From an uncultured Bordetella sp. (GTDB lineage Bacteria; Pseudomonadota; Gammaproteobacteria; Burkholderiales; SG8-41): a stretch of 64,000 nucleotides of DNA. A program made the translations under genes and the position numbers. Of this stretch, positions 1,450 through 62,962 are shown in pieces. The stretch spans positions 40,440 through 104,439 of the forward strand of contig CAYSQJ010000005.1 of assembly GCA_964433345.1 (NCBI GenBank), given 5' to 3'. The notes beneath the pieces were generated by a model that saw only the letters and a program-made list of their open reading frames with translations, was not told the DNA's origin and did no database searches. The number at the start of each line of letters is the position of its first letter. The first letter of the stretch is position 1.

Positions 1450-1469
1450 TTAACTAATTGTTTTTATTC
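1450..1469 (+). repeat. AT-rich dispersed core motif, copy 1 (TTAACTAATTGTTTTTATTC)
   Basis: Aligned by eye with 8 other copies. Overlaps the stop codon and last codons of 1464..2432. Confidence 0.7.
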
Positions 1470-2432
1470 TGTTTTTGGCGAGTTGGCGAATTTCAGGGGT
1501 TTTCCGGCGGCGAAGGCCGCGGCGTGGGCGAAGGCTTCGCCGAAGTACGCCTCGTAAGTGCCTTGCTCCAGCCAGGCGCTGTGGTTGGTACACAGCGCAT
1601 TGTCGAGCTTGAGCAGTGGATGATCGCCATGCTGCACCGGCTCGTTTTCATAGACATCCGTCGCCGCCATGCCCGGGCGCCCGGCCTTCAGCGCGGCCAC
1701 CAGCGCACCCGGCTCGATCAGTTCGGCGCGCGCCGTGTTGATCAGCAGGGCCGAGGGCTTCATCCTTTCGAGGTGCGCTGCCTTCACCAGCCCGCGCGTT
1801 TCCTTGGACAGCCTGGCCATGATCACCAGCACGTCAGCCTGCGCGAACAGGTCGTCCTGGCTTGCGGCAACTTCGTAACCCGCCGCTTTTGCCGCATTGA
1901 GGGAATTCTCCCGGCCCCAGACCAGCACGCGCATGCCGAAACTGGCGCCGGTCTGCGCGATCAGTCCGCCGATGGTGCCCAGGCCGAGGATCGCCAGCGT
2001 CTTGCCGCGCAGGCCGATGTTGAAGCGCGAGCGCCAGATGCCCTGGCGCATGCCGTCGCATTCGCGCGCGACATCGCGCCAGCTCGCCATGATCAGCGCC
2101 CAGGTGTGCTCGGCCACCGTGTAGGGCGAGGGGTGGCCGCCCGACAGGATCGCGATGCCGTGGTCATTGCAGGCCTCGACGTCGATGTGGTGGAAGCTGC
2201 GGCCGGTCTGGCTGAACAGTTTCAGCTTCGGCAGCTGCTCGATGATGCCGCGGGTGAAGCGTGTGCGCTCGCGGATCGGCACGATGATGTCGGCCTCGCG
2301 CAGGTTAGCCACCAGCCTGGATTCGGCCGGAGCAACGTCATTGAAAATGCGCACCTCGTGCCCATCGAGCGTCTTCAGGCAGTCGAGGGTGCGGACCAGA
2401 TTGTGGTAGTCGTCAGGGATGGCGATGATCAT
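1464..2432 (-). CDS. D-isomer-specific 2-hydroxyacid dehydrogenase family protein
   Basis: 322-aa ORF with NAD-binding ILGLGTIGG motif and typical C-terminal catalytic-domain blocks (INTARAELI, TNHSAW). Confidence 0.8.
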   Translation of the reverse strand: MIIAIPDDYHNLVRTLDCLKTLDGHEVRIFNDVAPAESRLVANLREADIIVPIRERTRFTRGIIEQLPKLKLFSQTGRSFHHIDVEACNDHGIAILSGGHPSPYTVAEHTWALIMASWRDVARECDGMRQGIWRSRFNIGLRGKTLAILGLGTIGGLIAQTGASFGMRVLVWGRENSLNAAKAAGYEVAASQDDLFAQADVLVIMARLSKETRGLVKAAHLERMKPSALLINTARAELIEPGALVAALKAGRPGMAATDVYENEPVQHGDHPLLKLDNALCTNHSAWLEQGTYEAYFGEAFAHAAAFAAGKPLKFANSPKTE

Positions 2433-2547
2433 GGGCGGCGAGTCTACCGCGGCGCGGTCGTGCCGGCCAGAGGTCGGCGACGGTGCGGATGTGTCACAAT
2501 TGCGGCTTCCGTAAAACCGTTGCAGAAGCGCAGAAAGGATTCACATC

Positions 2548-3321
2548 ATGGAACTCGGATTGAAAGGCAAGGTCGCCGTCGTCACCGGCGGCACCGAAGG
2601 CATCGGCAAGGCCACCGTGCAGCGCCTGGTCGCCGAAGGCGCGAAGGTCGCGTTCTGCGCGCGCCGCGCCGAACTGGTGAAGGCCTTCGCCGACGAGCTG
2701 AAGAAGCAGGGCGGCGACGTGCTCGGGCTGGTGGCCGATGCCGCGAAGGAGGGCGAACTGGAAAAATTCGTCGAGGACGCGGCGAAGCATTTCGGCCGCG
2801 TCGACATCCTCGTCAACAATGCCGGCGGCACCGGACAGGATCCCTTTGCCAAGGTGCTGGATCCGGCCTGGAAACACGATCTCGAGATCAAGGTGATGGC
2901 GCATGTGCGCACTGCGCGCGCCGCGATCCCGCACATGAAAAAGGCCGGCGGCGGCCGCATCATCAACCTCAACATGGTCGGCGCCAAGCAGCCCGGCGCC
3001 GCGATGTTCCCCACTACCGTCAGCCGCGCCGCAGGTCTTGCGCTGGCCAAGGGGCTATCGAAGGAACTCGCGCCTGACAACATCCTGGTCAACGTCGTCG
3101 CCGTGGGCAAGATCAAGTCCATGCAGCAGGCGCGCCGTGCCGCGAAGACCGGCAAGACCGTCGAGCAGCACTACGCCGACACCGGCAAGACCGTACCGAT
3201 GGGCCGTGTCGGCGAGTCCGAGGAAGTCGCCAACGTCATCGCCTTCCTTGCTTCCGATGCCGCGAGCTATGTCACCGGCTGCTGCATCAACGTCGACGGC
3301 GGATTGTCCGGCGTGTTGTGA
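2548..3321 (+). CDS. SDR-family oxidoreductase
   Basis: 257-aa ORF with TGGTEGIGKA cofactor motif, NNAG block and typical SDR length. Divergent from 1464..2432. Confidence 0.85.
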   Translation: MELGLKGKVAVVTGGTEGIGKATVQRLVAEGAKVAFCARRAELVKAFADELKKQGGDVLGLVADAAKEGELEKFVEDAAKHFGRVDILVNNAGGTGQDPFAKVLDPAWKHDLEIKVMAHVRTARAAIPHMKKAGGGRIINLNMVGAKQPGAAMFPTTVSRAAGLALAKGLSKELAPDNILVNVVAVGKIKSMQQARRAAKTGKTVEQHYADTGKTVPMGRVGESEEVANVIAFLASDAASYVTGCCINVDGGLSGVL

Positions 3322-3365
3322 TGTCCGGGGGTGATCTTTCAAGGTCACCCGGGCTTTTCCTTGCC

Positions 3366-3445
3366 GTCATTCCGGCGCAAGCCGGAATCCAGGAAACTGA
3401 AGTGGGCGTGCCCTGGATTCCGGAGCGCTGCGCGTCCGGAATGAC
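3366..3445. repeat. Inverted pair of GTCATTCCGG-N-CCGGAATCC hairpin units (REP / dRS3-like)
   Basis: GTCATTCCGGCGCAAGCCGGAATCCAGG at 3366-3393 and its inverted partner CCTGGATTCCGGAGCGCTGCGCGTCCGGAATGAC at 3412-3445. The same unit recurs at 9570-9647. Confidence 0.75.
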
Positions 3446-3451
3446 GATCCA

Positions 3452-4780
3452 TTGGGTCGTCCGCAGTTGAATTCCCTCACCGCAGCCCGCGATACCCTCG
3501 CCGCCTGGCTGTATTTCGCCGTTGTCGTGCTGGTGATCGCGGCGGTCTGGCTGCCGGCGTATCCCGCCTGGATCACCGGCATCATCGCCTGGGCCGCCTG
3601 CCTGCTGCTGTTGCCGAAGCTGCCGCGCCACCAGTTGAAAATGGTGCTGGTGCTGGCCGGACTCGGTGCGCTGGGCATCGGCTGGAGCATGGCGCATGGC
3701 GGCAGCGGCCTGATCGAAATGGCGCTGACCCAGAACGTGCCGCTGGCCGGCATGCTGATCGCGGTGTCCTTCCTGCAGCTGATCGCGGTCGGCCGCGAGA
3801 AGGCGAACGAGCCGCTGCAGCAGGGTCGCGGCGCGCTGTTCAAGACCATGCTCGGCGTGCACCTCTTCGGCGCGGTGATCAATTTCTCCGCGGTGGCGAT
3901 TTTTGCCGATCGCCTGAGCAGCCGCACCAAGCTGACCATGGAACAGGCGATGGGCCTATCGCAGGCCTTCATCATCGGCGCGGCTTGGTCGCCGTTCTAC
4001 GGCGCGATGGCGGCAGCGCTGACCGCGGCGCCCGGCGCCAGCCTGACCCAGCTGATTGTCTGGGGCCTGCCGGTGGCTGCGGCCGGCATGGTGGTCACCG
4101 GCCTGACGCTGACCTCGGCGAAATACAAGCACGCCCGCGACTTCACCGGTTACCCTCTGCACCTCGAGGCCTTGTGGGTGCCGGCGGTGCTGGCGGTCAG
4201 CGTGCTGGCGATCCACGAATGGCAGCCGCAGTGGTCGGTGCTGGCGGTGATCGCCGCGATGTCTTTCCTCGTGACCGTCGTCACGCTGCTGGTGCTGAGC
4301 GGCCGGCGCACCGGCGACATCCTGCTGCGTCACGGCCGCGCGCGGCTGCCGGCGATGAACGGCGAGCTGACGCTGTTCCTCGCTGCCGGCATCCTATCCG
4401 CCGGCATGAACGGCGCCATCGACGTGCTCGACCTAGGACTGCCGTTCTCGCAGTTCGGCTCACTCGAGGCGAGCCTGGTGCTGGTCGTCATGAACGTCGC
4501 CGCCTGGCTGGGGCTGCATCCGATCATCCTGGTGTCAGTGCTGGGGCCCTGGGTGATGCCTTTGCAACCCGACCAGACGCTGCTGGCAATGGTGTTCCTG
4601 ATGAGTTGGGGCGTCGGCCTCACCGCCTGCCCGATGTCGAACACCATGCTGGCAATGGCCGGGCGTTACGGTTTGCCTTTTGGGGAACTGCTGAAGCTGA
4701 ACCGGGTGTTCAGCATCAAGGTGACGGCGATCTGCATCGCCATCATTCATGTTTATGTGGCGGTGACGGCTAGCGGGTGA
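3452..4780 (+). CDS. polytopic inner-membrane protein, putative permease (family not recognised)
   Basis: 442-aa ORF with TTG start and hydrophobic segments throughout (>10 predicted TM). High GC3 is consistent with coding. The start codon is uncertain. Confidence 0.6.
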   Translation: MGRPQLNSLTAARDTLAAWLYFAVVVLVIAAVWLPAYPAWITGIIAWAACLLLLPKLPRHQLKMVLVLAGLGALGIGWSMAHGGSGLIEMALTQNVPLAGMLIAVSFLQLIAVGREKANEPLQQGRGALFKTMLGVHLFGAVINFSAVAIFADRLSSRTKLTMEQAMGLSQAFIIGAAWSPFYGAMAAALTAAPGASLTQLIVWGLPVAAAGMVVTGLTLTSAKYKHARDFTGYPLHLEALWVPAVLAVSVLAIHEWQPQWSVLAVIAAMSFLVTVVTLLVLSGRRTGDILLRHGRARLPAMNGELTLFLAAGILSAGMNGAIDVLDLGLPFSQFGSLEASLVLVVMNVAAWLGLHPIILVSVLGPWVMPLQPDQTLLAMVFLMSWGVGLTACPMSNTMLAMAGRYGLPFGELLKLNRVFSIKVTAICIAIIHVYVAVTASG

Positions 4781-4813
4781 TGTCACTGGTGGTGCTTATC
4801 CGCCAGTATAATT

Positions 4814-4833
4814 TTAAGTGTTTGTTTTTATTG
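4814..4833 (+). repeat. AT-rich dispersed core motif, copy 2 (TTAAGTGTTTGTTTTTATTG)
   Basis: Lies in the 63-nt gap between convergent genes 3452..4780 and 4844..6001. Shares the 19-mer TTGTTTTTATTGATATTTT with copies 5 and 9. Confidence 0.75.
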
Positions 4834-4843
4834 ATATTTTTAC

Positions 4844-6001
4844 TCAAAGCCGGCTCAGTATTTCCGCCCCCTTCGCCAGCGTCGCCTCCGACTTCGCAAA
4901 ACAGAAGCGCAGCACGCGGTGCGCCGGCGGTTCACGGTAGAACACCGACACCGGAATCGACGCGATGCCTTTTTCCTTGGTTAGCCGAACCGCAAGATCC
5001 GTATCTTTCTCGTCGCTTATCGCGTCGTAAGCCAGGTTCTGGAAGAAGGTGCCGCGCGAGGGCAGGGGTTTGAAGCGCGAGCCTTTTAATCCTTCCAGAA
5101 AAAAATCCCGCTTCTTCTGATAGAACGCCGACAGTTCGAGATAGGCGTCCTTGTTCTTCATGTATTCGGCGAAGGCGTACTGCAGCGGACCATTGGCGAC
5201 GAAGGCGTTGAACTGGTGGACCTTGCGGAATTCGGTCATCAGTTCCTTCGGCGCGGCGACGTAGCCGGTTTTCCAGCCGGTGACGCTGTAGGTCTTGCCG
5301 AAGGAGGACACGACAAAGCTGCGTTCGGCCAGTCCCGGAAAACGCGCGACGCTCTGGTGCCGGTGGCCGTCGAAGACGATGTGTTCATAGACCTCGTCGC
5401 TGATGACGACGATATCCGTGTTGCGCAGCGTGCCTTCGAGCAGGCGCAGGTCCTCGGCCGAGAGCACGGTGGCGGTGGGGTTGTTGGGGGTGTTGATGAT
5501 CAGGAGTTTGGTCTTCGGCGTGATCGCCGCCTGCACCGCCTGCCAGTCGATGCTGTAGTCGGGGTAACGCAGCTGCACATAGACCGGCACGCCGCCGTGG
5601 ACCTCCACCGCCGGCGCGTAGCTGTCGTAGGCGGGTTCGAACAGGATCACTTCGTCGCCGGGGCGGATCAGCGCGGCGCAGGCGGTGTAGATGGCGTAGG
5701 TCGCGCCGGGGACGACGGTGACCTCGTGCTCGACGTCGTAGCTCGTGCCATAGAGGGTCGCGATCTTTTCGGCGATGGCTTCGCGCAGCGCGGGAATGCC
5801 GGCCATCGGTGGATACTGGTTGACGCCGGCGTTGATGTACTTGGTCAGCAGCGCCTTCAGTTCCGGCGCGCAGTCGAAGTCGGGGAAACCCTGGGACAGG
5901 TTGATCGCCTTGTGTTCGGCGGCGAGCCGCGACATCACAGTGAAAATGGTGGTGCCGACGTTGGGGAGTTTGGAGTTCAGGTGTCCGGAGTAGGTGGGCA
6001 T
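4844..6001 (-). CDS. ybdL: methionine aminotransferase (class I/II PLP aminotransferase, YbdL-like)
   Basis: 385 aa. Collinear with E. coli YbdL as I recall it (SKLPNVGTTIFTVMS, AINLSQGFPDF, NQYPPMAG, SFGKTYSVTGWKTGY, LRFCFAK). Confidence 0.85.
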   Translation of the reverse strand: MPTYSGHLNSKLPNVGTTIFTVMSRLAAEHKAINLSQGFPDFDCAPELKALLTKYINAGVNQYPPMAGIPALREAIAEKIATLYGTSYDVEHEVTVVPGATYAIYTACAALIRPGDEVILFEPAYDSYAPAVEVHGGVPVYVQLRYPDYSIDWQAVQAAITPKTKLLIINTPNNPTATVLSAEDLRLLEGTLRNTDIVVISDEVYEHIVFDGHRHQSVARFPGLAERSFVVSSFGKTYSVTGWKTGYVAAPKELMTEFRKVHQFNAFVANGPLQYAFAEYMKNKDAYLELSAFYQKKRDFFLEGLKGSRFKPLPSRGTFFQNLAYDAISDEKDTDLAVRLTKEKGIASIPVSVFYREPPAHRVLRFCFAKSEATLAKGAEILSRL

Positions 6002-6023
6002 CGATCAAGGAAAGCGGGAAAAT

Positions 6024-6926
6024 TCAGCAGGCGGCCATTCTAGCGCAGTCGCTTTTCCCGCCTTGCGCCACTGCCGGACCCTCGCCGGCCAGTGCGATGA
6101 AATCCTCGCTGTAGTTTTGCAGCCGCCGCAACAGGTGGCTGCGCTGTGCCGGTGTCAGCATGCCGTCCACCGCCGCATAAAAGGCGGCGCGTTTTTTCCA
6201 CGAATCTTCGAAAGCCCTGGCCAGTGCCGGTGGCCGGCCCTGTTCCCAGTTCACCAGCCAGTCGCGCAGCCGCGTGCTGAAGGCCGCGCGGTCGCCGTTG
6301 CGGGTTTCCAGCAGCGCGAGGAATTCCTTCTGCCGGCGCAAGCGGTCCTCGTGGCGCAGGCGGTCGATCAATGGCAGTTCGCGCATCAGCTCGGTGATGC
6401 GCTGCTCCTGCTCGGCCGACAGTGTGCCGAACCACTCGGCCAGCTGTTTCAGCGTGCGCCGGTTCTGCGCCTGTCGGCGGTTCTCCGCGGATTCGTTGCT
6501 GCGATGCTCGCGCAGGAACTTGCGGTTGTCCTCTTCGAATTCGCGTTTCAGGTGCTCGACCTGTGCCGGGCTCAGGCCTGCGAGCAGTTCCGCGGCGTCG
6601 GGCGCGGCACGCGCGGCCATCACGCCGTAACGCGACTTGATGCCGTCGATCAGCCACAGGATGTCCTCCGCCTGCAGCCCGCGCTCGGCGCGGGCCCGGG
6701 TTTCAGCGAGGAAGCGCGCATATTCCGGCAGCTGCTCGCGGCGGTGCCAGGCATGCAGGCGTGCGAAGCGCTGTCCGAAGCTGTCGCGCTGCGCCGTGTC
6801 GAGATCGAAATAGCTCTGCGCCCGCCAGCCGGCCAGGGTATCGAGCTGGCCGTAGCCCAGCCGCACCATGCTGCAGCCGGCGAGCAGCGGCAGCAGCAGT
6901 GCGCAGAGCAGCAGGCGGAGGTGCAT
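6024..6926 (-). CDS. hypothetical lipoprotein (possibly DUF6279-like)
   Basis: ORF 6024..6974. The internal ATG at 6926 gives MHLRLLLCALLLPLLAGC with a lipobox. Its start abuts the stop of 6928..7863. Confidence 0.6.
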   Translation of the reverse strand: MHLRLLLCALLLPLLAGCSMVRLGYGQLDTLAGWRAQSYFDLDTAQRDSFGQRFARLHAWHRREQLPEYARFLAETRARAERGLQAEDILWLIDGIKSRYGVMAARAAPDAAELLAGLSPAQVEHLKREFEEDNRKFLREHRSNESAENRRQAQNRRTLKQLAEWFGTLSAEQEQRITELMRELPLIDRLRHEDRLRRQKEFLALLETRNGDRAAFSTRLRDWLVNWEQGRPPALARAFEDSWKKRAAFYAAVDGMLTPAQRSHLLRRLQNYSEDFIALAGEGPAVAQGGKSDCARMAAC

Positions 6927-6927
6927 T

Positions 6928-7863: not shown

Positions 7864-7883
7864 GATGTGGCCTCATGGTGTGC

Positions 7884-8201: not shown

Positions 8202-8319
8202 ATTGCTGTTAGAGTAGCATCGGCCGGGCGGGTTCAGTGCGGTTCCGCATCGCGGTCGCGCATCACGGCCGGTTTCGTCGAAGACAACTCTCCAAATCAG
8301 CAGAGGAACAGGGCAGACC

Positions 8320-9365: not shown

Positions 9366-9369
9366 TTTT

Positions 9370-9729: not shown

Positions 9730-10692
9730 TTACAGCAGCGGGTCAATAAAGGCCGCCATCCGCTTGCGCATGGCCGCATCCGGCAGCGTGCCGCGGCCGG
9801 CATCGAGGTTGTCGAGCATGTACTCGACCTTGTCGGTGCCGGGGATCACCGCGTTCACGGCCGGATGGCCGATCAGGTACTTCAGGAAAAACTGGCCCCA
9901 GCTCGCCGCGCCGAATTCCTTCGCCCAGTCCGGCAGTGGCTTGCCCTTGACCGCGCGGAACAGCCGGCCGCGGCCATAGGGCAGGTTGCACAGCAGCGCG
10001 GTTCCGGTGTCGGCGGCGGCGGCGAGCAGCCGGTCCTCGACGCTGCGTTCGGCCATTGAGTAGTTGACCTGGATGAAGTCGATCTTCTCCTGCTGCATGA
10101 TTTCGATCAGCCGCGCGTTGGCGTCTTCCTGGCGCTGTGAATGGGTGACGCCGATGTAGCGGAAATGCCCCTGCTGTTTCCATTCGCGCACGATCGCGAG
10201 CTGCGAGGCGACCATGCCGCGGTCGAGAAAGCCGACGTTGTGCATTTGCATCAGGTCGAACTTTGGTGTGCGCAGGCGCTGTTGAGAGGCTTTCATCTGC
10301 GCGGTGAAGGCGGCGTTGTCGTTGGCGCGCACCTTGGTGGCGAGAAACGTCTCGTCACGCACTTTGAGGTCCGCGAGCAGGTCGCCGACCACTGATTCGG
10401 CGCTGCCGTAGGAGGGCGCGGTGTCGATCAGCTTCGCGCCGCCGCCGAGCAGGGTGCGGATGACCCGGGCGCGTTCGGCGCGCTGCGTGCTGTCGTCTGC
10501 AATGTCGAAAATGATCGCAGTACCGAGGCCGATCACCGGCAGCAGTTCGCCGCTTTTCGGAATCTTGCGGCTGAGCAGGGGCTTGGCCGCGCCCTGCGCC
10601 AGCGACAGGCCGGGCAGTGTTGCCGCGGCGGCAAATCCGGCGCCCATCGTGAGCACATCGCGACGTGTATATAACTTATTGATTTTATTCAT
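9730..10692 (-). CDS. aldo/keto reductase with twin-arginine (Tat) signal
   Basis: ORF 9730..11022. ATG at 10692 gives MNKINKLYTRRDVLTMGAGFAAAATLPGLSLAQG. AKR blocks are collinear with 6928..7863. The start overlaps the stop of 10689..12023 (ATGA). Confidence 0.8.
   Translation of the reverse strand: MNKINKLYTRRDVLTMGAGFAAAATLPGLSLAQGAAKPLLSRKIPKSGELLPVIGLGTAIIFDIADDSTQRAERARVIRTLLGGGAKLIDTAPSYGSAESVVGDLLADLKVRDETFLATKVRANDNAAFTAQMKASQQRLRTPKFDLMQMHNVGFLDRGMVASQLAIVREWKQQGHFRYIGVTHSQRQEDANARLIEIMQQEKIDFIQVNYSMAERSVEDRLLAAAADTGTALLCNLPYGRGRLFRAVKGKPLPDWAKEFGAASWGQFFLKYLIGHPAVNAVIPGTDKVEYMLDNLDAGRGTLPDAAMRKRMAAFIDPLL
10671..10690 (+). repeat. AT-rich dispersed core motif, copy 3 (ATAACTTATTGATTTTATTC)
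   Basis: Covers the first codons (MNKINKLY) of 9730..10692 and the stop of 10689..12023. Confidence 0.7.
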
Positions 10693-12023
10693 AAAATTGT
10701 CTTCTCTGCGGGAGTGGGCGAGTTGTCGGTCCGGGAGCGCCGTTCGTGTTCGCGGCCGAGCAGCAGTGCCAGCGCGAGCCAGCCTGCGGCCACCGGTACT
10801 GTGGCCAGCGAAATCGACGAGGGTTCCATGCCGCTGCCGCGCAGCGCGTGGTAGAGCCAGCCGCTGACGGCATCGCCGCCGCGGAACACGACATTGTCGA
10901 TGACGTACTTGGCCTTGTACTTTTCCTCGCGCGCGAGCACCGTGAACAGCACCTCGCGCGCCGGGTTCGAGATCGCGAAGTTCGCCGCACGCTGCAGCGC
11001 CTGGAAGGCGATCACCACCCACAGCACCGGTGTCAGCGCCAGCGCGAGGAAGCCGGCGGCAAAAACCAGCGGCAGCAGTGCCGCCGCCGGACCCGCACCG
11101 AAACGCCGGATCAGCCTGCCGGTGGCGAGGAACTGCACGAGGATGGTGAGCAGGCTCACCGCGAGGTCGATGCGCGCGAAAATCGCGGTGCGGCGGTTCG
11201 GATCATCGCTCATCGCGGCGACGATGCCGAGCTGCTGGAAGTAGAGGAAGGTGCCTGCCAGCGACAGCAGTGCCACCCACAGCGCTATGCCGGCCAGATA
11301 GGGCGAGCGCAGCACCATGCCGAGACCGGCGAGCCAGCCGCCGCCGAGTTCGGGTTCCGGCCGGGCGGCGGCAGCCGGCGCTTCCTGCTCTTTCAAGCCG
11401 GCTGCAGCGGACTCCAGGCGCATCGCGCAGAATACCGCGGCCTCCAGCAGCACCAGTGCGATCAGCAGCAGGTTGGCGCGGCCCAGCGACTCGGCGAGGG
11501 TGACTGCGAGCAGCGGACCGAGCAGCGCGCCCGCCGAGCCGCCGGCGGCAATGAAGCCGAACAGGCGCTTGCCCTGCTCCGAGCGGTAGAGGTCGGCCAT
11601 GAAGGACCAGAACACCGACACCGCGAACAGGTTGAACACGCTGATCCAGACGAAGAACACACGCGCGGTGTCGGCCAGGGCCACCTTGAAAGTCAGCAGC
11701 AGCCAGAAGGCGAGGATGTTGAGCGCGAAGAAGTGGTAGACCAGCGGGATGAAGCGGCGCCGCGGCAGCCTTGCAACGAGTGCGCCGAACAGCGGCACCG
11801 CTGCGAGCATCACGAAGAAGGTTGCCGTGAACAGCCAGGGCAGGTTTCTGATGCCGCCGGCCAGCCCCATTTCGTCGCGCACCGGGCGCAGCACATAGTA
11901 CGAGGCCAGCAGGAAAAAGAAGTAGGCAAAGGACCACAGCAGCGCGCGGGCCTCTCCGGGCTTCACGGCGGCGACGCGGGCGAGCCAGGCTGGAACCGCT
12001 TGCGGGGTGGCGTTCATCGGCAC
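10689..12023 (-). CDS. MFS-type transporter related to the Npt/TLC (ATP:ADP antiporter-like) family
   Basis: 444 aa, ~12 TM. N-terminal LLWSFAYFFFLLASYYVLRPVRDEMG resembles TLC/Npt-like MFS proteins as I recall them. The family call is tentative. Confidence 0.6.
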   Translation of the reverse strand: MPMNATPQAVPAWLARVAAVKPGEARALLWSFAYFFFLLASYYVLRPVRDEMGLAGGIRNLPWLFTATFFVMLAAVPLFGALVARLPRRRFIPLVYHFFALNILAFWLLLTFKVALADTARVFFVWISVFNLFAVSVFWSFMADLYRSEQGKRLFGFIAAGGSAGALLGPLLAVTLAESLGRANLLLIALVLLEAAVFCAMRLESAAAGLKEQEAPAAAARPEPELGGGWLAGLGMVLRSPYLAGIALWVALLSLAGTFLYFQQLGIVAAMSDDPNRRTAIFARIDLAVSLLTILVQFLATGRLIRRFGAGPAAALLPLVFAAGFLALALTPVLWVVIAFQALQRAANFAISNPAREVLFTVLAREEKYKAKYVIDNVVFRGGDAVSGWLYHALRGSGMEPSSISLATVPVAAGWLALALLLGREHERRSRTDNSPTPAEKTIL

Positions 12024-13093: not shown

Positions 13094-13095
13094 GC

Positions 13096-17203: not shown

Positions 17204-17211
17204 ATTATTTT

Positions 17212-17231
17212 ATAAGTATTTGATTTTAAAT
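17212..17231 (+). repeat. AT-rich dispersed core motif, copy 4 (ATAAGTATTTGATTTTAAAT)
   Basis: Lies between the tctA stop (17203) and the start codon at 17230. Shares an identical 20-mer TATAAGTATTTGATTTTAAA with copy 6 in inverse orientation. Confidence 0.75.
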
Positions 17232-17829
17232 GACTTTTTATAAATCCTTGGAATGGCTGCGCGGTCTTGCTTTGTGCGGCCTGCTGCTTGCCGGCACCGC
17301 CGGCGTACGTGCCGCGGATACCCCGGTCCTGACCGGCGGCCCCTATGTGCCCACGCCGCAGCGCGTCGTCGATGCCATGCTGGCGGTGGCGAACGTGTCG
17401 GACCGCGACTACGTGATCGACCTCGGCTCCGGAGATGGCCGCATTGTCATCACCGCCGCGCAGAAGTTCGGCGCACGGGGCAAGGGTTATGACATCGACG
17501 GCGAACTCGTCGAACGCAGTACTGCCGCGGCGGCGAAACTGAAGCTGGGCGACCGCGTCAGATTCGAGAAGCGCGATGTGCTGCAGGCCGAACTGAAGGA
17601 TGCGACGGTGATCACGCTTTATCTGTTGCCGGCGATGATGCTCGAGCTGCGCGCCAAGCTGCTGCGCGAACTGAAACCGGGCACGCGCATCGTGTCCCAT
17701 GATTTCGATTTCGGCGACTGGCAGCCCGAGCGCACCGTTCACCTCGAGCTCGAGGAGAAATACGACATCACCGGATCCTGGTCTTCGACGGTGTACCTGT
17801 GGACGGTGCCGGACAGGGCCAAACAGTGA
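17230..17829 (+). CDS. class I SAM-dependent methyltransferase with predicted Sec signal peptide
   Basis: 199 aa. N-terminus MTFYKSLEWLRGLALCGLLLAGTAGVRA/AD looks like a signal peptide. Motif I is VIDLGSGDGRI. Confidence 0.7.
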   Translation: MTFYKSLEWLRGLALCGLLLAGTAGVRAADTPVLTGGPYVPTPQRVVDAMLAVANVSDRDYVIDLGSGDGRIVITAAQKFGARGKGYDIDGELVERSTAAAAKLKLGDRVRFEKRDVLQAELKDATVITLYLLPAMMLELRAKLLRELKPGTRIVSHDFDFGDWQPERTVHLELEEKYDITGSWSSTVYLWTVPDRAKQ

Positions 17830-36525: not shown

Positions 36526-36775
36526 TTCAAACACCCCCCTGTAATTTGCCTGCGAGGATAACCGAATTCAAAGTCGGTCGCCATTGGCCGGGGCAAGGTT
36601 CGCGGTCAGTTGCGGCATTCAGGGCGACGCCCGTTTGTGGTGCGTTCTCCGCCTGCGAACGACAGCTGTCTGCTGTTCGCGGGGGGTGCGGGCGGGGTGC
36701 AGGGTGCTCCGGCATATCCGGACATTGTTGCGTCGCCGATCGGCAATGCTGATGTGTCCGCAAGACTGCAATAAA

Positions 36776-36795
36776 TTAAGTAATTGTTTTTATTG
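36776..36795 (+). repeat. AT-rich dispersed core motif, copy 5 (TTAAGTAATTGTTTTTATTG)
   Basis: Lies in the ~435-nt non-coding region upstream of the ParA-like gene. Shares the 19-mer TTGTTTTTATTGATATTTT with copies 2 and 9. Confidence 0.75.
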
Positions 36796-36960
36796 ATATT
36801 TTATTCATCCTTCCTGTTGTCAGCGGCTTCAATTCCAAGCCGGGCAGCAGCTTGCCGCGATGTATTGAGGCGATGTCCAAACAGCGGTTGCCAATTCCCT
36901 GATTCACAGCGCAAAATCCCCAGTCCAATCCATGGCCGTTACGGCCAGTCGGAGGTCCCG

Positions 36961-44313: not shown

Positions 44314-44439
44314 TGTGATGTGGCGGTAATGACGGTGTTGCGTCCCGGCGGCGCGATCCGTCAAACGGTGTGCCGTCGCCCCCGGATGTTCCAGGTCACT
44401 CGGGGTGACGGTTTTTTCATGGTCCGGGAGGATAAAAAT

Positions 44440-45426
44440 ATGTTTAAAATCAAATACTTATATAAATACCTGCTGCCTGCATCAGCCTTGCTTGCGGCTG
44501 CCGGCGCAGTGCAAGCCCAAAGTACTGCGAACTATCCCAACCGCACCATCCGCTACATCGTTGGCTACACCCCCGGCGGCACCTCCGACATGCTGGCGCG
44601 CGCCGTGGGTCAGAAGATTTCCGCGGCCTTTGGCCAGCAGGTGATCATCGACAACCGTCCCGGTGCCGGCACCAACATCGGCACCGAAATCGGCGCCAGG
44701 GCGCCGGCTGACGGCTATACGCTGTTCATGCCGACGGTGGCCAATGCGATCAACCCGACGCTGTATCCGAAACTCGGTTATGACATGCTGAAGGATTTCG
44801 CCTATGTCACCAATTTCGCCAAGGTGCCCGGCATCGTCGTCGTGCATCCCTCGCTGCCGGCAAAAAATGCGAAGGAACTGATTGCCATTGCCAGGGCGAA
44901 TCCGAATTCGCTGCGCCATGGCTCTACCGGCGTCGGCAGCCCGCATCATCTTGCCGGCGAGATCTTCAAGTCCATGGCGGGCGTGAAAATGGTTCATGTG
45001 CCCTACAAGGGTGCAAGTCCGGCGATCGCCGACATCATTGCCGGACACATCGAAGTCTATTTCGGCGCGATGGTGTCCACGCTGCCGCATGCGCGCAGCG
45101 GACGCCTGCGTGCGCTGGGCGTGACCAGCCTGAAGCGTGTCAGCGCGGCAAAGGACGTGCCGACACTGGATGAACAGGGATTGAAGGGATTCGAGACCGG
45201 TTCCTGGTTCGGCATGGCGGTGCCCACCGGCACGCCCCGCGACATCATCACCAGGCTGCATGCAGAATCGACCAAGGCACTGCAGGCGCCCGATCTGCGC
45301 GACCGCATGATCGCCGAGGGCGCCGAGTTCGTCGGCGACACGCCCGAGCAGTTCACGGCCTTCATCAAGGCCGAGATCGAGAAGTGGGGCAAGGCTGTCA
45401 AGGCCTCGGGCGCGAGAGTCGATTGA
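44440..45426 (+). CDS. Bug-family (TctC-like) periplasmic binding protein, orphan
   Basis: ORF 44320..45426. ATG at 44440 gives the signal MFKIKYLYKYLLPASALLAAAGAVQAQ. Blocks IRYIVGYTPGGTSD, NRPGAGT and HVPYKGASPA. Confidence 0.85.
   Translation: MFKIKYLYKYLLPASALLAAAGAVQAQSTANYPNRTIRYIVGYTPGGTSDMLARAVGQKISAAFGQQVIIDNRPGAGTNIGTEIGARAPADGYTLFMPTVANAINPTLYPKLGYDMLKDFAYVTNFAKVPGIVVVHPSLPAKNAKELIAIARANPNSLRHGSTGVGSPHHLAGEIFKSMAGVKMVHVPYKGASPAIADIIAGHIEVYFGAMVSTLPHARSGRLRALGVTSLKRVSAAKDVPTLDEQGLKGFETGSWFGMAVPTGTPRDIITRLHAESTKALQAPDLRDRMIAEGAEFVGDTPEQFTAFIKAEIEKWGKAVKASGARVD
44442..44461 (-). repeat. AT-rich dispersed core motif, copy 6 (reverse strand ATAAGTATTTGATTTTAAAC)
   Basis: Encodes codons 1-8 of the Bug protein that starts at 44440. 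Confidence 0.75.
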
Positions 45427-48996: not shown

Positions 48997-49820
48997 ATTC
49001 ACTGCTGCGCATCGTCATCATCGGTGTCGCGGCCTGGGCCATCGTCGTTGCCTGGGTCTGGCTGACGCAGGACCGGCTGGTGTATTTCCCCCAGGTCGGC
49101 CGTGACAATCCGGCGACACCCGCTGCAGCGGGACTGCGTTTCGAGAACCTGCGGCTCAAAACTGAAGACGGCGAGACGCTGGCGGCGTGGTGGGTGCCGG
49201 CGACAGCGGGCAAGCCACGCGGCGCGGTGCTGCTGCTGCACGGCAACGCCGGCAGCATCGCTGACCGCATCATCTACCTGCCGCAGTTCACGGCGATGGG
49301 TTACGGCGTGCTGCTGGTCGATTACCGTGGTTATGGCCGCAGCAGCGGTTCACCGGATGAGGAAGGCACTTATGCCGATGCGCGCGCCGCCTGGCGCTGG
49401 CTCAATGAACGCGGTTTTGCTGCCGGGGACACAGTGCTGGTCGGTGAATCTCTGGGCGGCGCGGTGGCGGCGGAACTCGCGGCACGCGTGCAGCCGCGGG
49501 CTCTGCTGTTGCTGTCGACTTTCACGTCGGTCGACGACCTCGGCAGCGAACTCTATCCCTGGCTGCCGGTGCGCTGGATCAGCCGCTTCCGCTACGACAC
49601 GCTGCAGGGTGTGAAGGATTATCGCGGGCCGGTGCTGGTGGTACACAGCCGGGATGACGAGATCGTGCCTTTTGCGCATGCCCGGCGGCTGCAGGCGGCT
49701 GCGGGTGCGCGAGGACGACTTCTCGAAATGCGCGGCGGGCACAATGATGCTTTTGTGTTCGGCAAACCGGAGCAGGTCGCGGCGGTGGCCGCGTTTCTCC
49801 GCAGTGCTGCTCCGATGTGA
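48984..49820 (+). CDS. alpha/beta-fold hydrolase with N-terminal membrane anchor
   Basis: ORF 48921..49820. ATG at 48984 overlaps srkA by 13 nt. Nucleophile elbow GESLGG. N-terminal hydrophobic segment. Confidence 0.75.
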   Translation: MAALNSLLRIVIIGVAAWAIVVAWVWLTQDRLVYFPQVGRDNPATPAAAGLRFENLRLKTEDGETLAAWWVPATAGKPRGAVLLLHGNAGSIADRIIYLPQFTAMGYGVLLVDYRGYGRSSGSPDEEGTYADARAAWRWLNERGFAAGDTVLVGESLGGAVAAELAARVQPRALLLLSTFTSVDDLGSELYPWLPVRWISRFRYDTLQGVKDYRGPVLVVHSRDDEIVPFAHARRLQAAAGARGRLLEMRGGHNDAFVFGKPEQVAAVAAFLRSAAPM

Positions 49821-49822
49821 TT

Positions 49823-49842
49823 TTAAGTATATGATTTTATTT
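49823..49842 (+). repeat. AT-rich dispersed core motif, copy 7 (TTAAGTATATGATTTTATTT)
   Basis: Fills the 30-nt gap between the hydrolase stop (49820) and the patatin start (49851). Confidence 0.7.
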
Positions 49843-49850
49843 GTAAATAT

Positions 49851-50651
49851 ATGAAAAGCGAACTCAAGGTCGGCATCGCCCTCGGCGCGGGTTCGGCCCG
49901 CGGCTGGGCACATATCGGCGTGCTGCGCGCGCTGGCCAAGGCCGGCATTCGACCGCAAATCATCTGCGGCTCCTCGATCGGTGCTCTTGTCGGCGCCGTG
50001 CATGCGGCGGGACAGCTCGACGCGCTGGAAGAGTGGGTGCTGGGACTGACCTGGCGCAAGGTGCTCGGTTTTTTCGACATCAGCTTCGATGGCGGCTTCC
50101 TGAAAGGCGCGAAGCTGATTGCCTATCTCGAAGACCATTTGCTCGACCGCTCGATCGAGGAACTGGAGTTGCCCTTCGGTGCTGTCGCCACCGACCTGCG
50201 CAGCGGCCGCGAAATTTGGCTGCGCGAAGGGCGGGCGGCCGATGCCGTGCGTGCCTCGATCGCATTGCCGGGGCTGTTCACGCCTTTCGTGCTCGACGAC
50301 CGCCTGCTGGTCGACGGCGCGCTGGTGAATCCGGTTCCGGTGTCCCTGTGCCGCGCGATGGGTGCTGACATCGTGATCGGTGTCGATCTCGGCGGCGGGC
50401 GCATGGCGCGCCGCGCCGGTGCCGCGCGCCGTGACAGGTCGCTGAACATGATCGAGGTGGTCGCCGAGAGCATCAACATCATGCAGGTGCGGATTACCCG
50501 CAGCCGCCTTGCCGGAGAGCCTGCCGATGTGCTGGTTACGCCGCTGCTCGAGGACATCGGCACCATGGAATACCACCGCGCGGCCGAGTCCATTGCCGAG
50601 GGGCATGCCGCGGCGGAACTCGCGCTGCCGCAGATCAGGCGACTGTTGTAG
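49851..50651 (+). CDS. patatin-like phospholipase (RssA-like)
   Basis: 266 aa. Oxyanion GAGSARG, serine lipase motif GSSIG and a DGA/DGG-type catalytic Asp context (LVDGALVN). Confidence 0.85.
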   Translation: MKSELKVGIALGAGSARGWAHIGVLRALAKAGIRPQIICGSSIGALVGAVHAAGQLDALEEWVLGLTWRKVLGFFDISFDGGFLKGAKLIAYLEDHLLDRSIEELELPFGAVATDLRSGREIWLREGRAADAVRASIALPGLFTPFVLDDRLLVDGALVNPVPVSLCRAMGADIVIGVDLGGGRMARRAGAARRDRSLNMIEVVAESINIMQVRITRSRLAGEPADVLVTPLLEDIGTMEYHRAAESIAEGHAAAELALPQIRRLL

Positions 50652-52925: not shown

Positions 52926-52982
52926 ATTCACGGGTAGAATCCGCCAGCGCTGCCATCAGACGTTTGGGTGCATTAAATTTAT

Positions 52983-53002
52983 AAATAAAATCAGATAGTT
53001 AT
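52983..53002 (-). repeat. AT-rich dispersed core motif, copy 8 (reverse strand ATAACTATCTGATTTTATTT)
   Basis: Lies between dtd and the htpX promoter region. Confidence 0.7.
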
Positions 53003-53028
53003 AATTATTTTCGGACGACGGCGAGGTA

Positions 53029-60938: not shown

Positions 60939-62077
60939 GATTTGTCCTTGAGTTCGGAAAGCACTTCTTCGGTATGCGCGCCCAGCGCCGGCGGTCCGCG
61001 GCGCACGCCCAGGCGCTGCCCCGAGACATGCTGCGGTGAAATTACCGTCTTGCTGGCGACGCCGTTGGGCATTTGCAGGTCCTGCACCCACTCCATGTGT
61101 TTGACCTGCGGGTCAGCCAGCACCTGCGAATAATTGTACAGCGGCGCGCAGGGCACGCCGCGGGCGTTCATCCGTGCCAGCAGGTCGGCGGCGTCGTGCT
61201 TGATGAACTCCGCCTCCAGCAGCTCGCGCAATGCGTCCTGGTGCTGTGCGCGCAACGACGGCGACGTGAAGCGCGCGTCCTGCGTCAGATCGCTCCTGCC
61301 GATCACTTCGCAGGCGGCCTCCCACAGCTTGTTGGTGCCGGCGGCCAGCGCGAAATAACCGTCGCGGCAGCAGAATGCGGCATAGGGTGCATTCATCGGA
61401 TGCGCGGAGCCCAGCCGCACCGGATCGCGCCCGGTGCCGAACAGCTCGCTGGTCTGCAGGTTGGCGATGCCGAGCATGGCTCCAAGCATCGAAACATCGA
61501 CGTAATCGCCGTGGCCGGTGCCGCGGGCCTTGTGCAGTGCGGCTGCGGCGCTGAATGCCGCATAGAGGCCGGCCGAAAAGTCGGCGATCGGTATTCCGCA
61601 TTTCGCGGGACGGCCGTCGCGCTCGCCGGTGACGCTCATCACACCGCTCATCGCCTGCACCGTCATGTCGAAGCCGCCGTCGCCGGCGCGCGGCCCGCTC
61701 TGGCCGAAGGCGGAGACCGAGCAATAGACGAGTGCGGGATGCTCCTTCACCAGCGTCGCGTAATCGAGCCCGAATTTCGCCATCACGCCGGGGCGGAAAT
61801 TCTCGAGCAGGATATCGGCCGACAGCGCGAGGCGGCGTGCGTCGGCGCGTCCTGCATCGGTCTTCAGATCAAGCACGATCGAGCGCTTGTTGCGGTTGAC
61901 CGAGGCGAAATACTGGCTGTAGCCGTCGAGGATCGGCGGCCACTGCCGCATCAGGTCGCCCTCGGGCGATTCGACCTTGATCACGTCGGCGCCCATGTCG
62001 GCGAGCAGGCAGCCGGCGAACGGACCGGCCAGCACCTGGCAGAACTCGATGACGCGTATGCCTTGCAGGGGAAGCAT
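60935..62077 (-). CDS. family III (CaiB/BaiF) CoA-transferase
   Basis: 380 aa. N-terminus LQGIRVIEFCQVLAGPFAGCLLADMGADVIKVE is typical of the family. Confidence 0.8.
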   Translation of the reverse strand: MLPLQGIRVIEFCQVLAGPFAGCLLADMGADVIKVESPEGDLMRQWPPILDGYSQYFASVNRNKRSIVLDLKTDAGRADARRLALSADILLENFRPGVMAKFGLDYATLVKEHPALVYCSVSAFGQSGPRAGDGGFDMTVQAMSGVMSVTGERDGRPAKCGIPIADFSAGLYAAFSAAAALHKARGTGHGDYVDVSMLGAMLGIANLQTSELFGTGRDPVRLGSAHPMNAPYAAFCCRDGYFALAAGTNKLWEAACEVIGRSDLTQDARFTSPSLRAQHQDALRELLEAEFIKHDAADLLARMNARGVPCAPLYNYSQVLADPQVKHMEWVQDLQMPNGVASKTVISPQHVSGQRLGVRRGPPALGAHTEEVLSELKDKS

Positions 62078-62155
62078 GGTGGATTGCGATGGGTTGACGG
62101 GGCGCGGGGACCCGTGAATTTCAGGTTCCTATGCTAGCACGCACACCGCAGAGCT

Positions 62156-62884
62156 TCAGCCCTTGACGGCCGCAGAAAAACGTCCGCGCTTGTCGAGCAG
62201 CTCGAGAGCCTGCCGTTCGCGACCGGTCATCGGCAGCGCCGCCTTTGCCGCGCCGTAGTCGAAGCGGAATCCGGTGCGGGCGACGATGTCTTCAACCGTT
62301 GTTTGCGGATTGAAGGTATCAAGACGGAAGCGCGAACCGGCTTTCGGCTCGCGCAGAAAAACCGCCAGCGGCGTCACCAGCGCCGTCATGTTGCCGGAGG
62401 CGGTGACAAAATCGAGTTTGTCGACCAGCGCGCGCGGCGTGTGGTCGGTGCGCCAGGTGACGACGCGTTTTGCGGTCGGCAGCATCACTGCCGCGCCGCC
62501 GCCGCCGGGCAGGCGCACTTTCGGATTTTCCCAGGAGCCGATCGCCGAGACATTGGTGCGGCCTTCGGCGTCGATCTGCGCACAGCCGAGATAAACGAGG
62601 TCGAGGCCGCCGCGCGCACAGAGATCGTAGAAATCCTGGTTGGCGAAAATCGCCGGCGAGCCGTGGACGATCGCCGGATCGCTGCTCGACAACGGCACTT
62701 CTACCGGTTGCGGCTCGACGCCGCCGGCTACATTGATGTAGGTGAACGGAAAATCGTAGGCGCGTTTCGCCAGCAGGCAGGCGAGCATCGGCAGCGTGGA
62801 GTTGACGCCGCTGAAGGTGATTTCGCCGGCGCGGATCTGGCGCGCGAGATTGACGACGATGAAGGAGAGGGGCGTCCAGTTCAT
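62156..62884 (-). CDS. two-subunit CoA-transferase, beta (B) subunit (glutaconate/3-oxoacid CoA-transferase-like)
   Basis: 242 aa. Blocks LGCAQIDAEGRTN and LPGGGGAAV are typical of B subunits. Confidence 0.75.
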   Translation of the reverse strand: MNWTPLSFIVVNLARQIRAGEITFSGVNSTLPMLACLLAKRAYDFPFTYINVAGGVEPQPVEVPLSSSDPAIVHGSPAIFANQDFYDLCARGGLDLVYLGCAQIDAEGRTNVSAIGSWENPKVRLPGGGGAAVMLPTAKRVVTWRTDHTPRALVDKLDFVTASGNMTALVTPLAVFLREPKAGSRFRLDTFNPQTTVEDIVARTGFRFDYGAAKAALPMTGRERQALELLDKRGRFSAAVKG

Positions 62885-62942
62885 GTTGTGAGTATATGTT
62901 CGAGCTGTGGCTGCTTTCCTGCCAGCACTCCGAGGTTTTTAT

Positions 62943-62962
62943 ATAACTATTTGTTTTTATTG
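62943..62962 (+). repeat. AT-rich dispersed core motif, copy 9 (ATAACTATTTGTTTTTATTG)
   Basis: Overlaps the stop and last 7 codons (LKNINKNK) of 62947..63504. Upstream of the CoA-transferase B start. Confidence 0.75.

Follow-up and report, generated by a model that had tools for sequence, protein, structure and literature searches.

A family of nine AT-rich elements, each referred to here as a box, is present in the 64,000-nucleotide stretch of DNA that was analysed (the window). The box is a real, non-random element that is restricted to one clade; its placement is neutral with respect to genic context, and its role is probably exerted at the level of DNA. We tentatively interpret it as a putative docking site, retained by selection, for a protein that binds or bends DNA in a sequence-specific manner, with IHF as a possible candidate.

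Copies of the box within the window

The degenerate core WTAASTRWTTGWTTTTATT, searched with up to 3 mismatches, matches the window at exactly nine sites. These are the nine positions and strands given in the original prediction, and the excess over shuffled DNA is evident, with 0 matches in each of 100 dinucleotide-preserving shuffles. The window is GC-rich (61-69%), as had been noted, and a scan for AT islands (≥25 nt, ≥84% A+T) returned 10 islands, of which 9 are box copies and one (31101-31128) is without the motif. An nhmmer profile based on over 160 copies from other genomes found the same nine and no tenth copy in the window at E values up to 10, and an independent repeat search recovered the family as groups D12 and I7. 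Alignment of the copies also confirmed the eleven invariant core positions, the identical 19-mer common to copies 2, 5 and 9, and the identical 20-mer that copies 4 and 6 carry in opposite orientations.

Gene boundaries were taken from codon-usage-based calls, and the metagenome gene calls are in agreement with these. The predicted placement at gene boundaries holds for all nine copies, each being intergenic or reaching no further into a gene than its first or last few codons, but in related genomes the box is sometimes inside genes. The copies are as follows.

Copy 1, 1443..1479, plus strand: reaches into the 3' end of a 2-hydroxyacid dehydrogenase gene (1464-2432, minus strand), sharing its final codons and TAA stop (1464-1466), and lies upstream of an rnk/greB-like gene (856-1269, minus strand) at a distance of 177 nt
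Copy 2, 4807..4843, plus strand: separates a convergent pair, the gene at 3452-4780 (plus strand) and an aminotransferase gene (4844-6001, minus strand) whose stop is 2 nt away
Copy 3, 10664..10700, plus strand: runs across the stop of an MFS transporter gene (10689-12017, minus strand) as well as the ATG and opening codons (MNKINKLY...RRDVL) of the gene that follows (9730-10692, minus strand)
Copy 4, 17205..17241, plus strand: fills the 26-nt spacer from tctA (15677-17203) to a methyltransferase gene (17230-17829), overlapping the predicted ATG of the latter
Copy 5, 36769..36805, plus strand: upstream of a ParA-like gene (36961-37860, plus strand), within a spacer of 426 nt
Copy 6, 44432..44468, minus strand: spans the start codon (ATG, 44440) and opening codons (MFKIKYLYKY) of a TctC-family gene (44440-45426, plus strand)
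Copy 7, 49816..49852, plus strand: the whole 30-nt spacer from a hydrolase gene (48984-49820) to a patatin-like gene (49851-50651)
Copy 8, 52973..53009, minus strand: intergenic, with dtd (52476-52925) on one side and an htpX-like M48 peptidase gene (53098-53973) on the other, and upstream of a conserved promoter-like block (53029-53061) by 26 nt
Copy 9, 62936..62972, plus strand: flanked by two minus-strand genes, directly following the stop of the upstream one and 55 nt short of the start of the CoA-transferase gene (62884)

Because the Pfam domain of the dehydrogenase ends at residue 314 of 322, its 8-residue tail is read from copy 1. A hairpin directly precedes the T-rich strand of copy 2. 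The metagenome gene call for the TctC-family gene begins at the same ATG as ours, and there is no Shine-Dalgarno sequence before the ATG of the patatin-like gene at copy 7.

Sequence and distribution of the box

The 20-nt core originally described is real, yet the conserved unit is longer, at about 35 nt, with the consensus wwttttaTAAGTATTTG(T/A)TTTTATTGATATTTTTat. It spans about -7 to +29 from the core start, has sharp edges, holds about 28 informative positions and is strictly asymmetric. Its G/C positions are fixed within the AT context; the strongly conserved positions include 4-7 and 14-22, with a second TTGAT, and both ends of the box supply stop codons. Position 11 follows a lineage ‘dialect’, being A in 11/12 copies from VGIF and T in 19/20 from CAMBGJ. 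The segments TTGATA and TGnTATTTT are similar to -35 and extended -10 elements. An Rfam search returned 0 matches and literature searches by string and by topic found none, in keeping with the earlier statement that it was not recognised as a named element; the box appears to be undescribed so far.

With one genome per species scanned, more than 116 box loci were found, nearly all in Burkholderiales/Betaproteobacteria metagenome-assembled genomes of 55-68% GC, representing about 30 uncultured species. None was found in 0.48 Mb from more distant GC-rich relatives, nor in phage contigs. AT-rich islands occur at 1.79 per 10 kb within the clade, where 17/19 contain the motif, versus 0.08 per 10 kb in non-clade loci of GC above 0.60, where none does. 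As such, the box is hugely over-represented, contrary to the possibility that it is no commoner than AT-rich DNA would predict. Its density in clade genomes is about one per 7 kb.

Placement, origin and conservation

More than 90% of box copies lie outside genes. Relative to flanking genes 51 are sense and 60 antisense, while 27 are in convergent and 23 in divergent spacers; these shares equal the background spacer proportions, and no orientation preference relative to genes is evident. The adjoining genes are functionally unrelated. This placement bears on whether the box is a promoter or UP-type module, as was originally proposed, or a single-regulon operator, governing transcription of the adjoining gene. 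The -35-like and extended -10-like segments and the fixed distance of copy 8 upstream of a promoter-like block would suit such a module. However, the lack of orientation bias and of a common function among neighbours, the 17% of copies between convergent genes, and the location of copies within nuoG and gltB all argue against it. About half of the downstream start codons are too close to the box for a promoter and leader, and a simple promoter scan of 1-20000, which holds four copies, gave one match, located elsewhere. We consider this the least probable of the readings weighed here.

Stop codons crowd the box, with 50/79 within about 30 nt on one side and 61/91 on the other. This, the hairpin at copy 2 and the Shine-Dalgarno-less leader of the patatin-like gene, which in seven genomes is formed entirely by the box with a fixed ATG position, would agree with an AU-rich signal in RNA, such as an RNase E entry site, an S1 landing pad used where there is no Shine-Dalgarno sequence, or the U-tract of a terminator. 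Because the asymmetric box is used equally in both orientations to transcription, however, transcripts would carry either the U-rich or the A-rich strand. Together with the null Rfam result and the lack of enrichment of adjacent hairpins across copies, this renders an RNA-level role very improbable. The metatranscriptome contigs that were found are too sparse for transcript ends to show.

Copies inside genes are informative as to origin. In L111 and L115, nuoG has a perfect copy that can be aligned codon by codon, and without indels, to homologues lacking the motif; a graded series runs from L205 (none) through L206 (7.5 bits) and L204 (14.6 bits) to the perfect copies. The gltB genes of L023, which has the box, and L058 differ there by AT-ward substitutions only, again with no indel. 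These indel-free alignments indicate that the box arises in place by substitution rather than by insertion, and under directional pressure. Where boxes are read in a coding frame, they fall in tolerated peptides such as variable linkers; the forward frame yields KYLFLLIF, which forms the signal-peptide core in four genes.

Copies 7 and 8 were located in relatives through protein homology only, and are hence free of ascertainment bias. Copy 7 is kept in 6/6 relatives (79-99% protein identity), with the ATG at box positions 26-28, and copy 8 is kept in the same orientation in 3/3 (L124, L125 and L128). Identity at these two copies is 72-73% within the box versus 22-38% in the flanks. The distance from copy 8 to the promoter-like block is held at 25-26 nt in four species, while the sequence between has diverged. 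In L011, copy 2 is maintained (76-80% nucleotide identity) at its orthologous position, where the flanking spacer is unalignable. Over about 10 kb in four species (74-83% nucleotide identity) there is no gain or loss of boxes, and the substitutions preserve the consensus. Judged from these alignments, orthologous copies appear to be under purifying selection, and the invariant positions are kept in relatives, an expectation on which the original prediction had been staked.

Some features nonetheless resemble a selfish interspersed repeat of REP, MITE or gene-conversion type, copied from site to site, mostly tolerated and without host function. The copies are many, short, near-identical and sharp-edged, with stop codons at both ends and lineage-specific variant frequencies. 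Presence also varies among relatives: L098 carries a copy at a site that is empty in the window, L009 and JAHCLD differ, and in one spacer the box of L072 and that of L084 point in opposite directions. REP/REPIN and MITE families (REP, ERIC, Correia) are likewise short, abundant, mostly intergenic and often near gene 3' ends, and some bear IHF sites or provide stop or start codons (PMC3184786). Such families, however, have palindromes or terminal inverted repeats and spread by insertion, whereas box copies show no enrichment of flanking hairpins or palindromes, and those inside genes originate through substitution only, in graded steps. No target-site duplications were found at box copies, and no transposase or other recurrent gene family beside or bracketed by them. 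A selfish repeat is, with this stability over four species, improbable, and the suggestion of a very small mobile repeat relic is not supported, given the duplication, transposase and indel evidence.

Candidate functions of the box

The main rival to a docking site is a putative uptake-signal-like tag, a sequence preferred by the DNA-uptake machinery of the clade; uptake bias and recombination (molecular drive) would spread motif-creating mutations wherever they are tolerated. This idea, already present in the original prediction, has gained strength from the in-place origin of copies, the lineage ‘dialects’ and the tolerated coding frames. USS of Pasteurellaceae and DUS of Neisseriaceae share with the box a clade-specific hyper-abundance with a sharp boundary, occurrence in both orientations and in all spacer types at background proportions, origin by point mutation without indels even in genes such as nuoG and gltB, stability at orthologous sites, tolerated coding frames and lineage ‘dialects’. 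These are published hallmarks of both systems, and GTDB places Neisseriaceae within the order Burkholderiales. However, the box is about seven times sparser (one per 7 kb versus about one per kb), its roughly 28 informative positions far exceed the 9-12 nt cores of known signals, and it is almost purely A/T and largely extragenic. Drive alone predicts neither the kept distance to the promoter-like block nor that to the patatin ATG. We regard an uptake tag as a serious alternative, if a somewhat unlikely one.

The docking-site reading draws on the spacing of about 7 kb, the placement at stop codons and the in-gene build-up by substitution, which make a protein-recognition tag likelier than a jumping element. 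It is also favoured by the over-representation within one clade, the retention of orthologous copies, the context-neutral placement, the fixed G/C positions and the kept distance to the promoter-like block near copy 8. The original prediction had noted a resemblance to IHF sites, which goes beyond composition but is incomplete. In one fixed register the reverse strand of the box fits WATCAANNNNTTR without a mismatch in 26% of copies and with a single mismatch in 64%, versus 0.7% and 16.5% when those sequences are shuffled. TTGTTT, the commonest variant, departs from the IHF core at one position, a degree of agreement that composition by itself reaches in about 1/6 of cases (~16%). An A5 tract lies 9 nt upstream of the IHF-consensus match, recalling the A-tract geometry of the lambda H' site. 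Positions that are usually free in IHF sites are strongly conserved in the box, so IHF alone is insufficient to account for the whole of it. Lineage shifts at position 11 are odd for so conserved a protein.

According to PMC3333891 with its reference 6 (Boccard & Prentki 1993) and PMC3184786, the enterobacterial RIB/RIP, the IHF-binding linker of BIME-1, are like the box interspersed extragenic repeats with an IHF-type site, located at 3' ends of transcription units in hundreds per genome. Unlike the box, RIBs place the IHF site between two inverted GC-rich REP palindromes and are tied to REP/RAYT biology. RIB/RIP have 13 conserved positions where the box has about 28, and the box is AT-rich in a GC-rich genome and arises in place. 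GapR of Caulobacter, a nucleoid protein tied to supercoil management, also lands on AT-rich DNA at gene 3' ends in a GC-rich genome (PMC8510090). GapR is, however, alphaproteobacterial and reads AT-richness and overtwisting, whereas the box is a fixed 28-nt sequence.

Substitution spread into coding DNA, ‘dialects’ and orientation neutrality also mark DNA uptake sequences, and under the docking-site reading the benefit of a single site must suffice to fix about 15 substitutions inside nuoG.

Taken as a docking site, the box would be a clade-specific, asymmetric and non-transposed recognition site of about 30 bp, with copies arising in situ by base substitution and then retained by selection. 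Its putative reader would most likely be an abundant sequence-specific DNA-binding or DNA-bending protein, IHF being the best-fitting known candidate and another nucleoid protein or a clade-specific binder being possible. Such a protein would occupy a site roughly every 7 kb, chiefly where DNA is least constrained, immediately 3' of stops, and in spacer-poor long genes or operons the site would be written into tolerant coding segments. Once bound, it would introduce fixed bends or anchors into the chromosome. These could act as supercoil or domain barriers, or nearby promoters could use them as architectural sites.

Extent and composition of the AT-rich box

The original prediction placed nine copies of a 20-nt AT-rich core at gene boundaries in the window. 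A search with the degenerate core (up to 3 mismatches) returned exactly those nine positions and strands, and 100 dinucleotide-preserving shuffles gave 0 core matches. The invariant positions and the common 19-mer and 20-mer proposed there agree with the window copies, and all nine copies are intergenic or touch only the first or last codons of a gene, as judged from codon-usage gene calls that are consistent with public metagenome gene calls. The family, termed here the box, was recovered independently by a repeat search of the window (D12 and I7), and a profile built from copies in other genomes matched the nine window copies and nothing else. Numbered 1-9 by coordinate, the copies discussed individually below are:

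4807-4843, plus strand: copy 2
10664-10700, plus strand: copy 3, providing the start codon and N-terminus of a gene
36769-36805, plus strand: copy 5
44432-44468, minus strand: copy 6, likewise providing a start codon and N-terminus
49816-49852, plus strand: copy 7, forming an entire Shine-Dalgarno-less spacer
52973-53009, minus strand: copy 8

The GC content of the window is 61-69% throughout, and of its ten AT islands (at least 25 nt, at least 84% A+T) nine are box copies. The sole motif-free island, 31101-31128 (AATAAATCATTTCTGAAATTTTGAAATG), lies in the divergent spacer between 30369-31064 (minus strand) and a gene starting at 31240 (plus strand). Three tandem paralogous genes of ~400 aa occupy 31240-34867, with a fourth copy 13 kb away at 17874-19040, and the common DNA blocks of the four are 60-77% identical (repeat families D3-D5 and D8). 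A further repetitive region is a 1084-aa ORF at 54037-57291 (minus strand), whose central part is a tandem array of dozens of degenerate repeats (period a multiple of 6-24 nt); these are GCC/TTC-rich on the plus strand, which implies an Ala/Glu/Lys-rich protein.

An alignment of 181 distinct copies, taken from the window and from related genomes, delimits a conserved unit that begins at about -7 and ends at about +29 when counted from the start of the core: wwttttaTAAGTATTTG(T/A)TTTTATTGATATTTTTat. On both sides conservation drops abruptly into unrelated GC-rich sequence, and no conserved flank was found in this alignment beyond about 35 nt. Because most of the aligned loci had been picked with a 26-nt pattern, the 65 copies that mismatch it were analyzed apart; the right half, TTGAtwATTTT, is still conserved in them. 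Rfam covariance models run on the whole window gave no match at gathering score, and no tRNA or tmRNA genes were found in it. Exact-string and topic literature searches likewise found no published description of the box sequence.

Carriers of the box and origin of its copies

The window represents part of the chromosome of an uncultured bacterium that has been found in wastewater, sludge and compost. A one-genome-per-species scan identified at least 116 box loci in about 30 species with a GC content of 55-68%. Among the matches listed, nearly all come from MAGs that carry the label Burkholderiales, Betaproteobacteria or "Bordetella"; this last name is probably a misassignment. In a second, unbiased sample, fetched through homology to a patatin-like protein, the box was present in the six closest relatives (79-99% protein identity), and 74 more distant loci (up to 59% identity, about 0.5 Mb) contained no box.

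AT-rich islands and motif content in the clade and outside it
Clade sample: 1.79 islands per 10 kb; motif in 17/19
Non-clade loci with GC > 0.60: 0.08 islands per 10 kb; motif in 0/4

Given this difference, the clade gained islands and did not relabel pre-existing AT-rich DNA. The density is 9 boxes in 64 kb in the window and about 1.6 motif-bearing islands per 10 kb in the unbiased clade sample. A phage origin was considered and set aside, since the single match among 2.9 million viral contigs lies in a 37% GC contig and looks like chance. TctC/Bug solute-binding genes make up about 10.6% of predicted proteins (91/858) in the window and loci L007-L122 of related genomes, an unusually large expansion, and the window itself is rich in them.

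The manner in which copies arise can be followed within genes. A perfect copy is found within nuoG at the related-genome loci L111 and L115, encoding residues 659-668 (KNINKNNNLS) between the molybdopterin and C-terminal domains. NuoG homologues in the PDB are too divergent at this site for the indel question, which was settled with metagenomic homologues: 21 align across the box point with zero gaps, and the motif-free ones carry an equal-length GC-rich segment such as G-I-A-G-R-L-D-N-R-L. At the codon level the orthologues form a graded series, from no box in L205 through a partial one in L206 (7.5 bits) and a copy of 14.6 bits in L204 to the perfect copies. The nuoG copy is the sole clear box in the 20.7 kb of L204, which is mostly a tightly packed nuo operon. 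A weak partial box in the nuoM/nuoN region of the same operon (15992-16018, CAAGTTCTTGTTTTTATTGCGTTTTTCATGG, nhmmer E 0.58) may be another copy forming in place; this contig contains many frameshift-split genes, so sequence errors are possible. The gltB-like gene of L023 holds a one-mismatch copy that differs from its L058 orthologue only by AT-ward, mostly synonymous substitutions. Read in its forward frame the box encodes KYLFLLIF, which serves as the hydrophobic signal-peptide core in four genes. Because the in-gene copies in nuoG and gltB are gap-free and the nuoG series is graded, we conclude that substitution created these copies where they stand, under a directional force that was either selection for the DNA motif or a drive.

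These observations run against the suggestion in the original prediction that the copies are relics of a small mobile repeat. No boundary pair shows a conspicuous target-site duplication of 3-8 nt (the highest z among about 1200 tests is about 3), the two ends of the box do not form an inverted repeat, and comparison with motif-free homologues of nuoG and gltB did not reveal the filled and empty sites differing by element length that are expected of a MITE. A selfish interspersed repeat is improbable: the in-gene copies are substitution-only, transposition signatures are missing, and box positions are stable over the long term. REP and REPIN elements were also rejected, as the box is non-palindromic and lacks a RAYT-type recurrent neighbour family. 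Indeed the ubiquitous TctC is the sole neighbour gene family that recurs, at 12% of neighbours versus 10.6% of predicted proteins overall, and where two boxes bracket genes, these encode ordinary transporters and enzymes. Nor does the RIB/RIP (BIME-1) type with inverted REP palindromes apply, the 40-nt flanks folding no better than random 40-mers from the same loci (mean -9 versus -10 kcal/mol). The window does contain a REP-like, GC-rich palindromic repeat of 28 nt (CCGTCATTCCGGCGCAAGCCGGAATCCA) in two inverted copies, 3364-3391 and 9620-9647, which are 93% complementary and both located in spacers. Repeats of the classical REP type are therefore present in this genome as well, separate from the AT-rich box.

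Conservation, turnover and placement

Copy 7 is kept in 6/6 relatives, where the patatin ATG falls at box position 26-28, and copy 8 is kept with unchanged orientation in each of the three relatives whose sequence includes its site. Ungapped comparison at these two copies gives 72-73% identity within the box versus 22-38% in the flanks next to it. Copy 2 persists in L011 (overall identity 76-80%), where the spacer around it is unalignable. Four species that are syntenic over about 10 kb, at 74-83% nucleotide identity, neither gained nor lost a box there. Turnover is nevertheless evident: L098 carries a box at a site that is empty in the window, and L072 and L084 hold a box in one spacer in opposite orientations. 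The window spacer 28618-28779, between two minus-strand genes, contains a GC-rich inverted-repeat element of ~110 nt (GCCACAGAGGACGCAGAG ... CTCTGTGCTCTCTGTGGC); syntenic L098 is without this element and has an AT-rich box there instead, after the orthologous stop codon. Elsewhere in the window, the sodium:dicarboxylate symporter gene at 46480-47996 is missing in the close relatives L123 (95% identity) and L126, with synteny resuming on both sides. This segment, the least GC-rich 2-kb bin (0.609), probably represents a recent gene gain or loss, and no AT-rich box is found at its junctions.

Upstream of the htpX-like M48 peptidase gene a block, CTTGAACTTG-N10-CCTCATCTAAGGA (53029-53061), is kept in four species, and in all four it lies 25-26 nt downstream of copy 8 across diverged intervening sequence. 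Sigma-E promoters have the consensus GAACTT-N16-TCTAA and sigma-32 promoters CTTGAA-N14-CCCCATnT; we take the block to resemble both, as would presumably suit an htpX-like gene.

Such fixed spacings bear on the idea, also raised in the original prediction, that the box is an uptake-signal-like tag, which we regard as a doubtful though still credible explanation. It shares most evolutionary signatures with the box, namely in-place origin, coding-frame tolerance, dialects and context neutrality. As with USS/DUS, the box is hyper-abundant in one clade and in both orientations, originates through point mutations, persists at orthologous sites and occupies tolerated coding frames. However, USS/DUS occur at about one per kb, a density the box does not reach; it is also very long, and its spacings to the promoter block and to the start codon are kept across species. 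In its strongest form this explanation would make the box a DNA uptake or self-recognition signal of a new kind and the first one beyond the Pasteurellaceae and Neisseriaceae: a ~28-nt AT-rich tag in GC-rich uncultured Burkholderiales, written by molecular drive into spacers, nuoG, gltB and signal peptides, with lineage dialects. We consider that version unlikely.

Orientation of the box relative to its flanking genes
Both sense: 51
Both antisense: 60
Convergent spacer: 27
Divergent spacer: 23

This mix of spacer types equals the background of the window spacers (72% co-directional, 15% convergent, 13% divergent). Stop codons crowd the box from either side. Of 79 sense stops to its left, 50 end no more than 30 nt away and 11 use box T1A2A3; of 91 antisense stops to its right, 61 fall at box positions 4-41 and 33 sit on the right-hand TTA. 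Start codons are scattered at a median of about 90 nt, many at distances too short for a promoter. Judged from predicted genes, the box also occurs within operon spacers, at start codons and between divergent genes. The promoter or UP-type module named in the original prediction is not supported, given the near balance of sense and antisense copies, the convergent cases and the wide spread of start distances. Unbiased orientation and convergent contexts clash with any promoter or operator role, which is very improbable, and equally with a function exerted at the RNA level, for which the chance is scarcely better. Metatranscriptome runs that contain this organism consist of sparse contigs only. 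Hairpins beside copies 1 and 2 had hinted at the U-tract of an intrinsic terminator. That reading was rejected because 169 copies showed no enrichment of hairpins on either flank, whichever context class they belonged to; half of the copies, moreover, would be transcribed as the A-rich strand. With respect to replication, 60-65% of copies have their T-rich strand on the G-rich strand (p about 0.004-0.02, uncorrected). This weak trend does not exceed the bias in gene orientation, which sets the box apart from strongly polar motifs such as Chi or KOPS. On the minus strand at copy 5 (36765-36815), a 10-codon mini-ORF, MNKISIKTIT*, follows GGAAGG and may be chance or a gene-start remnant.

A candidate protein-docking site and its implications

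The original prediction also noted a fit of the GATTTT-type copies to the IHF consensus. The 13-bp IHF core WATCAANNNNTTR falls in a fixed register on the reverse strand, box positions 13 to 1, with 26% perfect matches, 64% with 1 mismatch and 10% with 2, against shuffle rates in that register of 0.7%, 16.5% and 58.6%, respectively. The one-register matches lie far above composition, although the majority variant deviates by one mismatch, having A for the core T. On the reverse strand an A5 tract occupies positions 27-23, 9 nt upstream of the IHF-type core, a placement that we liken to the lambda H' site, and the conserved unit of about 35 bp is about the size of an IHF footprint, so that both tract and length are as expected of an IHF site, with its A/T tract about one helical turn 5' of the core. 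In a comparison of consensus motifs by eye, none of a Bacteroidetes-type promoter, CtrA, FNR/CRP, Fur, Fis, Lrp, an H-NS nucleation site or a DnaA box fits better. Conservation is also strong at positions 4-7 and 14-22, including a second TTGAT 9 nt from the first, and position 11 differs by lineage, being A in 11/12 copies of the VGIF lineage and T in 19/20 of CAMBGJ. Judging from these positions and lineage preferences, IHF alone does not explain everything in the box.

Two features speak for a protein as the reader of the box: its G/C positions are fixed within an AT background, and it is asymmetric over a length of ~30 bp. Weighing these protein-site features together with the IHF fit and the positions it leaves unexplained, we commit, tentatively, to the box as a docking site under selection, recognized by a sequence-specific DNA-binding or DNA-bending protein, with IHF the leading though unproven candidate. 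The docked protein would probably have an architectural or topological role. Analogous protein-site roles would be those of the IHF-binding RIB elements, placed at 3' ends of transcription units (PMC3333891, reference 6), and of the GapR sites of GC-rich Caulobacter, which are AT-rich and likewise located at 3' ends (PMC8510090).

In broad terms the box can be grouped with interspersed extragenic protein-site repeats or with uptake signals, yet it differs from each in being non-palindromic, near-pure A/T in a GC-rich genome, informative at ~28 positions and written into genes by substitution. If it is a docking site, an environmental and wastewater Burkholderiales clade would mark its chromosome about every 7 kb with one long protein site, strong enough to reshape the nuoG and gltB coding sequence. 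This would be a rare case in which nucleoid-protein anchors or domain barriers can be read straight from sequence, and the gain and retention of sites would become directly testable. Should the box be an uptake signal, it would constitute a third, very different family of such signals and would imply natural transformation in an uncultured group. On either reading, AT-rich N- or C-terminal protein tails in these genomes can derive from the box, of which annotators should be warned, and the box is a clean marker for assigning metagenomic contigs to the clade.
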